A DNA stretch of 64,000 nucleotides from an uncultured Rhizobium sp. Its GTDB lineage: Bacteria > Pseudomonadota > Alphaproteobacteria > Rickettsiales > UBA1997. Below, one piece after another: positions 52,691 through 55,180 of the stretch. The notes beneath the pieces are model-generated. The model ran no database searches. It was given only the letters and a program-made list of their open reading frames with translations, and was not told the origin of the DNA. The stretch's first letter is position 1. Every line of letters starts with the position of its first letter. The stretch lies in NCBI GenBank assembly GCA_964506725.1, contig CAZDLU010000001.1:45955-109954 (forward strand), in the 5' to 3' direction. The position numbers and the translations under genes were made by a program.

Positions 52691-55180
52691 GTGCTAGAAA
52701 AAATCCTCAAAAAATTACAGCATAAGCAAGAGCAGGGCGTTCCTACGGCCAAAAAGCCTGACGAGGATTTTATTCCTTATGTTTGCCATTTTGATCCAAA
52801 TACAATTTTAACTAAAAACGGTGAATTGTTGCAAATAATTCGCGTTACCGGTTTCGGCAATGGCGGCATTGCGTCAGATTTAACTTCACTACGCGACACG
52901 GTGCGTGATGCAATTGTGGATCATGTTAAAACTACCAAATTTGCTTTTTGGTTTAGTACTATCAGGCGCAAAAAAAATATAACTCCTAAAGAGCGTGATT
53001 TTCCTGATCTTTTTTCGCAAAAGCTTGATCAAGTCTGGGTTGAAGATAATAAATGGGATGATCAATATGTTAATGAATTTTACATCACTATAATTATTGA
53101 AGGTCTCGATACGTCAATTGTTAATTTCAATGGTTTTATGCGTTCATTCTCGCATATGGCGACTCGATCTTTACATAAAAATTTCTTACAAAATGCTCAT
53201 ACAGAATTGTTGCAAGTCGTTAACGGAATATTGAAAGAATTAGAAGATTACGGCGGAAAATTGCTTGGGCTAAAAGAATGGGATGGTATTTTATATTCCG
53301 AGCCGATGCGCTTTTTTGCTAAGCTCATTAACCTTTATGAAGAGCGTTATCCGCTATCAGCAAATGATATTTCCAATGATTTAGCCAGTCACAAAGTCGC
53401 TTTCGGTAATCGTGAATTGGAAGTGGTTGGCTATAATAATAAAAATTTCGCGGCATTACTTTCGATTAAGGAATATTTTGAAGTTTCGCTGGAATCGCTG
53501 GATCGTATTTTACAATTGCCGACGGAATTTATCGTTACGCAATCTTTCGATTTTGCTTACAATAAAAAACAGCTTGAGCCATTTGAATATCAAGACCGAA
53601 TTTTGCAAGTTAGTGGTGATGATTCTTTTCGCGAATTAAGCGGAATTGCCAATTTTATGGAAAGCAAACATGATTTGCCAACCGACTATGGCCAGATGCA
53701 AACCACGGTGATGCTGATTAGCAAGACTATACAAGATTTGGAAAATGATGTAAAAAAATTATTCGAACAATTCAGCGCTCTTGGTATATTGGCTGTACGC
53801 GAGGATATTTTTTTAGAACATTGTTTTTGGGCGCAATTGCCGGCCAATTTCCGCTATTTACGTCGGCAAAAAATTCTTAACACTTATCGCGTTGCCGGTT
53901 TTGCGGCGTTGCATAGTTTTCCGGCCGGTTCATTTGCCGGAAATCACTGGGGTTCGGCATTAACAGTCTTTCGCACGGTTTTAGATACACCATATTTTTT
54001 CAATTTTCATAAGGGAGATTCAGGAAATACGCTTATTATCGGTGATGGTAAAAATCGTAATATTTTGCTTAATTTCTTAGTGGCGCAAGCTCGACGTTTT
54101 AAAACTAAATTATTTTATTTTGATAGTGATAAGTCGGCAAAATGCCTGATAAAAGTGCTTGGCGGTAAGTATTACGATATTTTAGAGCATGATGAAAATA
54201 ATCCGGAATTCTTAAAATTAAATCCGCTTTCATTGCCAAAAACCAATGAAAATAAAGATTTTCTTGCGGAATTTTTCTTTAGCTTAATTGCTTTTCTGCG
54301 TGAGCCGATTTCTGATGATGAAATTAATATGATTCCGCAAATTATTGAGCGAATTTATGTTTCAAATGCGACGGATTTAACATCGGCAGTGCAAGCTTTC
54401 AATACTCCGGAAACCAGAACTATTTACGAAAGATTGAAAATTTGGAGTGAAGGAAAATTAAATTATATTTTTAATTCCAAAGATGAAATTAATTGGGCGG
54501 AATCAATTATCGGCTTCGATTGTTCTGATGTGATAAAACAAAAACCGATTTTAATTCCGATTGTAAATTATTTACTTTATCGCATTGAAGCCGCACTTGA
54601 CGGCAGCCCTACAATCATCGTGCTTAACGAGGCATGGGACATGTTAGACAATATTGTGGTTGATCCGAAATTGCGTGATGTTTTAGATCGTATAAAAAGC
54701 AAAAATGCTATAATTATTTTTACGGCCAAAAATTCTAAAGAAATTGCTGAAAGTGAATTTACCAAAGAAATCAGAAAAGATATTGCCACCGAAATTTTCA
54801 TGCCTAATAAAAATGCTGATGAATCTTACAAGAAAGGTTTCGGTTTGAATGATGAAGAAGTAGAAATTCTGAAAGTTATGGAAGGTGATGAAAATCACTT
54901 TTTATTCAAACATGATAGCGATTCAGTGATTGCGATGTTGAATTTCCATAATCGCGAAGAATACTTAAAAATTTTATGCGCTGATGAAGTTGTGCTAACG
55001 GCAATGGAAGAAATTATTGCAGCCAGTAATGGCGATGATATAAAAATCTGGCTGCCGCAATTGCTTGAAACTCTGAAAGAACTTGAAAATGACAGGTTAG
55101 AACAAGAGCGCCAGAGGCTGCGTGAGGAAGCTGCAGAGAGAAGAAAAGAAGCCAAAGCAAGGCAGGACGGGGATTATTGA
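52691..55180 (+). CDS. virB4: VirB4-like protein, divergent second copy with degenerate NTPase motifs
   Basis: 829 aa, GTG start 2 nt after the gltA stop. Shares blocks with copy I (..FIPYVCHFDPNTILTKNGELLQIIRVTGF.., ..TPYFFNFH.., ..LNFL.AQA..FK..LF.FD.D...). It has GDGKNRN (54041-54061) in place of GPTGAGKT, and IIVLNEAW (54611-54637) in place of MIVLDEAW. Confidence 0.8.
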   Translation: MLEKILKKLQHKQEQGVPTAKKPDEDFIPYVCHFDPNTILTKNGELLQIIRVTGFGNGGIASDLTSLRDTVRDAIVDHVKTTKFAFWFSTIRRKKNITPKERDFPDLFSQKLDQVWVEDNKWDDQYVNEFYITIIIEGLDTSIVNFNGFMRSFSHMATRSLHKNFLQNAHTELLQVVNGILKELEDYGGKLLGLKEWDGILYSEPMRFFAKLINLYEERYPLSANDISNDLASHKVAFGNRELEVVGYNNKNFAALLSIKEYFEVSLESLDRILQLPTEFIVTQSFDFAYNKKQLEPFEYQDRILQVSGDDSFRELSGIANFMESKHDLPTDYGQMQTTVMLISKTIQDLENDVKKLFEQFSALGILAVREDIFLEHCFWAQLPANFRYLRRQKILNTYRVAGFAALHSFPAGSFAGNHWGSALTVFRTVLDTPYFFNFHKGDSGNTLIIGDGKNRNILLNFLVAQARRFKTKLFYFDSDKSAKCLIKVLGGKYYDILEHDENNPEFLKLNPLSLPKTNENKDFLAEFFFSLIAFLREPISDDEINMIPQIIERIYVSNATDLTSAVQAFNTPETRTIYERLKIWSEGKLNYIFNSKDEINWAESIIGFDCSDVIKQKPILIPIVNYLLYRIEAALDGSPTIIVLNEAWDMLDNIVVDPKLRDVLDRIKSKNAIIIFTAKNSKEIAESEFTKEIRKDIATEIFMPNKNADESYKKGFGLNDEEVEILKVMEGDENHFLFKHDSDSVIAMLNFHNREEYLKILCADEVVLTAMEEIIAASNGDDIKIWLPQLLETLKELENDRLEQERQRLREEAAERRKEAKARQDGDY

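Follow-up and report, generated by a model that had tools for sequence, protein, structure and literature searches.

A second VirB4 gene with a degenerate ATPase site

The DNA considered here is a stretch of 64,000 nucleotides (nt) from an uncultured bacterium named Rhizobium sp. and placed by GTDB within the Rickettsiales (UBA1997); it corresponds to positions 45,955 to 109,954 of the forward strand of contig CAZDLU010000001.1 (assembly GCA_964506725.1) and is referred to, as a whole, as the window. An initial annotation, made from the sequence alone, had recognized two open reading frames (ORFs) in the window that resemble VirB4, the ATPase of type IV secretion systems (T4SSs), and had interpreted one of them as a full-length but non-catalytic paralog. 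Both ORFs lie where that annotation placed them. Copy I is a canonical VirB4 and is called rvhB4-I; the second, copy II, is called rvhB4-II for reasons that are given below. The two genes and the parts of copy II are as follows.

52691..55180, forward strand: rvhB4-II (copy II), an 829-residue VirB4 paralog with a GTG start and a degenerate ATPase site
52691..54010, forward strand: N-terminal domain of copy II (residues 1-440), the better conserved half
54041..54061, forward strand: degenerate Walker A, GDGKNRN in place of GxxxxGK[ST] (residues 451-457)
54119..54142, forward strand: FDSDKSAK at the place of the VirB4-invariant FDKDRGxE block, as aligned
54614..54637, forward strand: degenerate Walker B, IIVLNEAW, in which Asn646 (AAC, 54626-54628) replaces Asp and the Glu is kept
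54719..54736, forward strand: FTAKNS in place of FATQSV, the Gln after the post-Walker B strand being Lys in copy II
55049..55177, forward strand: charged C-terminal tail of 43 residues (10 Lys/Arg, 12 Asp/Glu) following the conserved Trp787
8552..10942, reverse strand: rvhB4-I (copy I), a canonical VirB4 of 796 residues that scores 467 bits against TrwK of R388

The two proteins are collinear, as had been proposed, and BLASTP aligns them over nearly their full length (33% identity over 782 aligned positions, E = 1e-141). Copy II also aligns with R388 TrwK over residues 20-798 (261 bits, E = 2e-76; phmmer) and matches the Pfam family PF03135 (CagE_TrbE_VirB N-terminal domain, E = 3e-31), a family that copy I matches as well, and PF27097 (VirB4_TrbE_N) is among the precomputed domains of the database. 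Its GTG, which indeed begins 2 nt past the TAA stop of gltA, is the earliest possible start in frame, and the N-terminal peptide is conserved in relatives up to this codon. The GC content of the gene is lower than that of copy I (36.4% vs 43.0%), as is its GC content at third codon positions (GC3; 31.8% vs 40.8%).

The catalytic motifs of copy I are intact and include the two that had been annotated, namely Walker A (GPTGAGKT, 9575-9598) and Walker B (MIVLDEAW, 8999-9022), together with FDKDRG and ATQ. In copy II, GDGKNRN occupies the Walker A position exactly as annotated, with no GK[ST]. The P-loop of TrwK, GQSSSGKT, is paired by phmmer with G-D-G-K-(gap)-N-R-N; the Gly-Lys-Thr of TrwK is therefore replaced by Asn-Arg-Asn in copy II, and the loop is one residue shorter. 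A database protein 85% identical to copy II (P0002) reads GNDIKDRN at this position. A functional P-loop hidden elsewhere in the protein, which would have contradicted the annotation, was looked for and is rejected: GxxGxGK[ST] was not found, regular-expression searches of the entire protein returned neither GK[ST] nor [AG]xxxxGK, and BLASTP, the phmmer alignment with TrwK and MAFFT all place GDGKNRN at the P-loop.

The annotated exchange of Asp for Asn at Walker B is likewise encoded in the sequence, and in the closer orthologs Asn occurs here more often than any other residue (92 of 175). Two further blocks are altered. Both FDKDRGAE, which reads FDSDKSAK in copy II, and FATQSV are unchanged in copy I and in the VirB4 proteins of pTi, IncX4 and Sphingomonas. 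Copy II keeps 33 of the 55 universally conserved positions of the VirB4 C-terminal domain. Among the sequence features of a functional ATPase, it lacks Walker A, the hhhhDE of Walker B, FDKDRG..R and ATQ, and judged by these four blocks its product probably cannot bind or hydrolyze ATP normally.

The predicted structure agrees with the annotation of a full-length VirB4. An AlphaFold2 model of copy II reaches a mean predicted local distance difference test (pLDDT) score of 79.5, with values above 90 over most of the ATPase domain, and a predicted template modeling score (pTM) of 0.77. The best Foldseek matches to this model are chains of R388 TrwK (E = 1e-49 to 1e-39, TM-score 0.72-0.80), followed by the VirB4 of T. 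pseudethanolicus, and copy II is thus predicted to keep the VirB4 fold. Overall identity to TrwK is about 24-25%. Copy II shares the two-domain architecture and fold of TrwK (PDB 7O41, 7O43, 8RTD; PMC9259494) and its N-terminal blocks xPY (here FIPY), QLP and TPYFFNFH; unlike TrwK, which carries GQSSSGKT, FDEFW, FDKDRG and ATQ, it is devoid of all four catalytic blocks.

Relationship to RvhB4-II of the Rickettsiales

The 120 best database homologs of copy II are environmental proteins of 51-85% identity, and the named entries among them are titled 'Rickettsiales bacterium' or 'type IV secretion system protein VirB4'. For copy I, the 120 best homologs are 82-89% identical. A scan of genomes, one for each species, yielded 80 loci, which all come from environmental metagenome-assembled genomes (MAGs); the best of these is only 64% identical, so the species of the window is not among the representatives. 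The closest relative of copy II, at 85% identity, is found in GCA_031972755.1 (locus L082). Many lake-water MAGs that carry a Gamibacteraceae-like rvhB4-II go under the public record titles 'Rickettsia typhi', 'Rhizobium sp. Q54' or 'uncultured Rhizobium sp.', and these labels are evidently wrong.

Neighbor-joining trees, computed with a numpy implementation and with the VirB4 proteins of pTi, IncX4 and Sphingomonas as outgroups, were built from 219 and then from 332 sequences. They separate a clade I from a clade II, each of which is monophyletic in 100 of 100 bootstraps with 219 sequences and in 50 of 50 with 332. Clade II comprises 288 members and includes copy II. Published assignments were taken from Table S1 of Lehman et al. 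(2024; PMC11077975), whose RvhB4-II column contains the clade II loci UBA2645 contig_763 (L013) and RIFCSPLOWO2_01_FULL_40_26 scaffold_42357 (L003, tagged GAMI for Gamibacteraceae), as well as Gw_Eff_bin_514, REEB497, Baikal-deep-G64, BS307-5m-G20, M_DeepCast_50m_m1_063 and UBA6187 contig_46975 (Athabascaceae). A protein search seeded with a basal member of the clade (L080) recovered MCE3255365.1 and MCD6035825.1, which also stand in that column. The clade II members with such a listing are L003, L013, L010, L020, L032, L065, L038, L044 (MCE3255365), L081 and P0301 (MCD6035825).

Copy II is 58-62% identical to the Gamibacteraceae entries of this column. A canonical RvhB4-I with all motifs intact is encoded in the same genome, about 42 kb away, and copy II itself lies apart from other rvh genes and has diverged faster than paralog I. 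The annotation had suspected a second VirB4 of the rvh type, and the position of copy II within a clade that holds published RvhB4-II loci and accessions sustains this suspicion: by sequence comparison, copy II is RvhB4-II, from an aquatic lineage close to the Gamibacteraceae. The duplication of virB4 has been placed in the Rickettsiales' last common ancestor (Schon et al., 2022). Rickettsia, Orientia, Wolbachia, Anaplasma and Ehrlichia do not appear among the listed matches of the three protein searches or of the genome scan, all of which are environmental.

RvhB4-II has a history in the literature. It was suggested to act as an inner-membrane gate that stabilizes the channel without powering it (Gillespie et al., 2009; PMC2653234), and was later described as defective in its ATPase sites, encoded at a locus that 'is well separated' from the others, and belonging to a set of Rvh-II proteins that evolve strikingly faster and probably still assemble into the machine (Gillespie et al., 2015; PMC4676284). 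Later papers reiterated this picture and recorded expression of rvhB4-II in Rickettsia and Orientia, and what the rvh duplications do is still 'a mystery' in the words of a 2025 preprint. Copy II resembles the published RvhB4-II in being a second full-length VirB4 beside a canonical RvhB4-I, at an isolated locus, with substituted residues in the nucleoside triphosphate site, faster divergence and a lower GC content than paralog I, the last of which had been observed in Rickettsia in 2009. It differs in coming from an uncultured aquatic lineage rather than from the classical intracellular pathogens, in its gltA-rvhB4-II context, in its charged helical tail and in the mosaic decay of the active site within its environmental clade. 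The annotation's inference of a non-catalytic VirB4, which accords with the alteration of four VirB4-invariant blocks, had thus already been published (PMC2653234, PMC4676284). Copy II is a fresh example of a paralog documented in the Rickettsiales T4SS since 2009, and both the observation and its interpretation are a rediscovery.

Selection and mosaic loss of the Walker motifs

The ratio of nonsynonymous to synonymous substitution rates (dN/dS) was estimated by the Nei-Gojobori method with our own code. Between copy II and its ortholog in L082, dN/dS is 0.052 overall, 0.040 in the N-terminal and 0.061 in the C-terminal domain, and the value for gltA in the same pair of genomes is 0.017; dS in this pair is about 1.5 and near saturation, which makes the ratio approximate, and less diverged pairs give similar values. 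Across 37 closer pairs of orthologs (dS from 0.14), dN/dS ranges from 0.05 to 0.165, whether both, one or neither of the Walker motifs is kept. Contig-end truncations aside, the rvhB4-II ORFs of the related loci are intact with two exceptions. At L070 (6001-8638) the gene is split into parts that lie in frames 1 and 2, some 145 nt apart, and at L064 (6031-8118) an in-frame internal deletion leaves an ORF of 732 residues; either could reflect decay or an error of MAG assembly. The annotation had proposed to test copy II for purifying selection and had named relaxed selection or frameshifts in relatives as evidence against its reading. Purifying selection is borne out, with one seemingly frameshifted gene among 81 related loci, and relaxed selection is contradicted by the close pairs.

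The two paralogs evolve at different rates, and so do the two halves of copy II. In five matched genomes the overall identity to orthologs is 83-87% for copy I and 55-63% for copy II. Copy I is 82-85% identical in its N-terminal and 85-89% in its C-terminal domain, and the corresponding values for copy II are 66-72% and 40-54%. Family-wide conservation of the N- and C-terminal domains amounts to 0.90 and 0.91 in clade I and to 0.77 and 0.59 in clade II. The ATPase domain is the faster-evolving half of RvhB4-II, and the N-terminal domain is the more constrained one.

Conservation of the catalytic blocks among the 288 members of clade II is as follows.

GxxxxGK[ST] kept: 236 of 288
Walker B DE kept: 144 of 288
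Both Walker motifs kept: 140 of 288
Neither Walker motif kept: 48 of 288
ATQ glutamine kept: 16 of 288 (41 of 41 members of clade I, and all outgroups)
DKDRG kept: 1 of 288 (lost in 287)

Loss of the Walker motifs in clade II is a mosaic, and copy II stands at its fully degenerate end. Parsimony on the tree gives an ancestral clade II protein that had both Walker motifs and was already without FDKDRG and ATQ, followed by at least 17 losses of the P-loop and about 18 changes at Walker B. Copy II and its 85% identical relative form a small branch of their own in which the P-loop has been lost.

The charged tail has a distribution of its own. Beyond the conserved Trp, 43 residues follow in copy II, 12 in copy I and 9-14 in the three outgroup VirB4 proteins, so the extra tail of the annotation is real by comparison with all of these. 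AlphaFold2 predicts it as a single continuous helix (residues 784-825). A tail of at least 30 residues is present in 95% of a 162-member subclade around copy II, whereas basal clade II (median 14), clade I (12) and the outgroups do not have it.

Genomic surroundings of the two genes

Pfam scans of 46 ORFs and tblastn searches with ten R388 Trw proteins over the 64 kb were used to survey the window. Pfam detected three T4SS genes, the two VirB4 copies and a single VirB6/TrbL gene, and the tblastn searches found the VirB4 pair only. Copy II is flanked by mnmA, gltA, an ORF of unknown nature, tig and psd, and the nearest rvh gene is some 42 kb away; both surveys uphold its annotation as a gene that is not beside other T4SS genes. 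The features that matter for the context are listed here.

51340..51368, forward strand: sigma-70-like promoter match, TTGACA-17-AAGAAT, the best in the region and upstream of gltA (a consensus match only)
51399..52688, forward strand: gltA (citrate synthase; PF00285, E = 1e-133), whose stop lies 2 nt before the start of rvhB4-II
5634..8555, reverse strand: rvhB6-like gene (TrbL/VirB6), 973 residues (PF04610, E = 8e-14)

The association with gltA extends well beyond the window. At 64 of 81 related loci gltA lies directly upstream of rvhB4-II on the same strand, the median distance between them being about 13 nt, and the conserved arrangement is mnmA(-)-gltA(+)-rvhB4-II(+). This adjacency is seen down to members that are 41% identical (range 41-85%), and the most basal members are without a gltA link. 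It is likely that rvhB4-II and gltA are co-transcribed, as probable operon partners.

Copy I belongs to a small islet (5634-12192, reverse strand). The start of the rvhB6-like gene overlaps the stop of copy I by 4 nt, a permease of the major facilitator superfamily (AmpG-like) lies upstream of copy I across a gap of 26 nt, and the sole rvhB6-like gene is followed by an amino-acid permease on the other strand. By comparison with islet A of Rickettsia (rvhB3-rvhB4-I-rvhB6a-e), the islet in the window is without rvhB3 and has one rvhB6-like gene. TrwM/VirB3 gave no tblastn match in the 64-kb window, and none of rvhB10, rvhB11, rvhD4, RvhB8-II and RvhB9-II lies within it. The remaining Pfam picture is that of a housekeeping chromosome, with dacC-like, trpF, hslV, tolB, a gatA-like amidase, purA, purB, thiC, ffh, deaD, lpdA-like, mnmA, gltA, tig, psd, a carboxyltransferase and a TonB-dependent receptor.

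A few further observations concern the surroundings. Between rvhB4-II and tig, on the reverse strand, lies an ORF of 616 residues (55182-57032) whose stop is 1 nt from that of rvhB4-II; it has no Pfam match, a GC3 of 23.7% and a hydrophobic segment near the C-terminus of its product. At L082 tig follows rvhB4-II directly, and a homolog of this ORF was found in no other retrieved locus; it therefore has the appearance of a lineage-specific insertion, and its product could be a surface or secreted protein. Just upstream of mnmA (about 49450-50096, reverse strand) a HepT-like toxin is paired with an MNT nucleotidyltransferase antitoxin; the MNT gene occupies 49806-50096, and the matching Logan contig (locus L001, 1-406) carries an annotation of HepT. 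Three ORFs of 475, 275 and 327 residues, at 44960-47282 (forward strand) and 32331-33314 (reverse strand), have no Pfam match at E <= 1e-5.

A proposed non-catalytic partner of RvhB4-I

We consider it fairly probable that the role of RvhB4-II is that of a structural, non-catalytic partner to RvhB4-I. RvhB4-II would associate with the active paralog in the inner-membrane complex and would make its contacts chiefly through the conserved N-terminal domain. A precedent for a structural role without ATP hydrolysis is provided by Walker A mutants of the Agrobacterium tumefaciens pTi VirB4: as recounted by Gillespie et al. (2009; PMC2653234), an active-site mutant still stabilized VirB3 and VirB8 and formed the T-pilus. 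Those proteins were engineered point mutants of a sole VirB4 and, in that account, lost substrate transfer, whereas copy II is a natural paralog beside an intact copy.

A more specific version of this proposal draws on the R388 machine, in which twelve VirB4 subunits are arranged as a hexamer of dimers and the central ones form a ring and bind VirB3 (PMC9259494). There, VirB3 is found on the central subunit only and the VirB8 tails on the outside subunit only, the interface between the two subunits is entirely N-terminal, and the role of VirB4outside was called unclear by the authors (PMC9259494). A single protein, TrwK, fills both positions, in contrast to copy II, which coexists with a catalytic paralog. 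In the Rickettsiales the two paralogs might have divided these positions between them: RvhB4-I would form the central, VirB3-bound catalytic hexamer, and RvhB4-II would take the peripheral 'outside' position, paired with the central subunit by the N-terminal domains only and holding the VirB8 tails. If a paralog served the outside position exclusively, one would expect its N-terminal domain to be retained, its ATPase domain to be relaxed and the loss of catalysis to be tolerated, and this expectation matches the pattern of copy II. That RvhB4-II is a dedicated VirB4outside, in a heterodimer with a central and catalytic RvhB4-I, is nevertheless a tentative idea, and the odds are rather against it. 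We infer the loss of catalysis in copy II from its sequence, and both its pairing with RvhB4-I and its location on the outside are likewise matters of inference. In the literature library that was searched, no paper links VirB4outside to Rickettsia.

The outside idea was confronted with the conservation of contact residues, which were taken from the supplementary distance tables of the R388 paper and mapped through an alignment that included TrwK. For clade I the alignment comprised P0121-P0240, mapped to TrwK residues 23-36, 149-157, 181-211 and 377-378. The conservation values are these.

N-terminal background: clade I 0.839; clade II 0.508
VirB3-contact sites: clade I 0.908 (p = 0.008, more conserved); clade II 0.526 (not different)
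VirB8-tail-contact sites: clade I 0.705 (p = 0.003, less conserved); clade II 0.520 (not different)

Read as conservation of small sets of sites, with the contacts of VirB8 tail A missing and with positions transferred across 25-33% identity, the values for clade I suggest that RvhB4-I looks specialized for the central role, and the VirB8 surface of RvhB4-II is conserved no worse than the remainder of its N-terminal domain. The test is half supportive of the outside idea.

Several observations weigh against the proposal, the limits of this mapping among them. The complementary prediction of the outside idea failed, as clade II shows no relaxation at the VirB3-contact sites (0.526 vs 0.508). 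Both Walker motifs are kept by 140 of the 288 clade II members, so that the ancestral RvhB4-II may still have been able to bind nucleotide and the RvhB4-II family as a whole may not share a purely structural role. The genes rvhB3, rvhB8 and rvhB9 are not in the 64-kb window, and for orthology to the RvhB4-II of Rickettsia and Anaplasma the basis is the published table together with the duplication tree of Schon et al. (2022).

A serious rival to a structural partner is a regulatory one, in which RvhB4-II would enter mixed hexamers with RvhB4-I and act as a brake or gate on secretion ('autoregulation'), its dead sites lowering or pacing ATP turnover. An autoregulation of effector secretion by Rvh-II proteins has been hypothesized in print (PMC11077975, PMC10732058, PMC4676284), and the C-terminal domain, under purifying selection (dN/dS 0.06-0.15) and modeled with pLDDT above 90, appears to be more than a spacer; the unrelaxed VirB3-contact sites of clade II would also be expected if RvhB4-II could occupy the central position as well. 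Ring membership is harder to reconcile with the clade-wide loss of the FDKDRG..R block and of other ring-facing residues that are invariant in VirB4, and a C-terminal domain that evolves about 1.7 times as fast as the N-terminal one is a poor fit to precise contacts with the very slow RvhB4-I. We regard mixed hexamers as unlikely.

Two further readings have less in their favor. A function outside the T4SS, as a nucleotide-independent scaffold or regulator tied to central metabolism, is suggested by the gltA that precedes the gene at 64 of 81 loci across 41-85% identity, by a locus that never adjoins other rvh genes and by the charged helical tail that a subclade has gained. According to the literature, however, the paralog is retained with the rvh system across the Rickettsiales, and the domain that bears the T4SS contacts in R388, the N-terminal one, is the best conserved. 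Basal clade II is without the gltA link, which makes the adjacency a later arrangement, and a housekeeping neighbor may merely supply constitutive transcription; such a function thus seems quite improbable. Least probable by far is an in-frame pseudogene heading for loss. The missing active site, the GC content below that of copy I, an evolution roughly three times faster and the gene split across two frames at L070 could be read in this way, but dN/dS stays within 0.05-0.165 in all close pairs, including those in which both Walker motifs are lost and those with unsaturated dS (0.14-0.6). Relatives have full-length intact ORFs save for the split gene of L070 and the in-frame deletion of L064, the N-terminal sequence is conserved to the start codon and the fold is modeled with confidence. 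The selection estimates and the intact ORFs of relatives lead us to reject a decaying pseudogene.

Implications for the rvh system

A degenerate and isolated second VirB4 has been a textbook oddity of the rvh system since 2009, and as a discovery copy II carries little weight. Its value lies in the data that it adds to the open question of the rvh duplications and of the outer VirB4 subunits. The details that come from the present analysis are the mosaic loss of Walker motifs, the faster ATPase domain, the gltA linkage and the subclade-specific tail. In the environmental relatives the Walker motifs have been lost many times under strong purifying selection, with the N-terminal domain being the more constrained. 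This pattern yields a testable model, a VirB4 heterodimer with a catalytic central and a non-catalytic outside subunit, together with natural variants by which the model can be probed, among them proteins with both Walker motifs (L013, P0041), with Walker A only (P0005) and with neither (copy II). If the outside reading of RvhB4-II were true, the P-loop losses, at least 17 in number and at dN/dS of about 0.05-0.17, would constitute a natural mutational series, and the handling of nucleotide by the outside subunit would be dispensable. It would also explain the duplication of rvhB8 alongside that of rvhB4.

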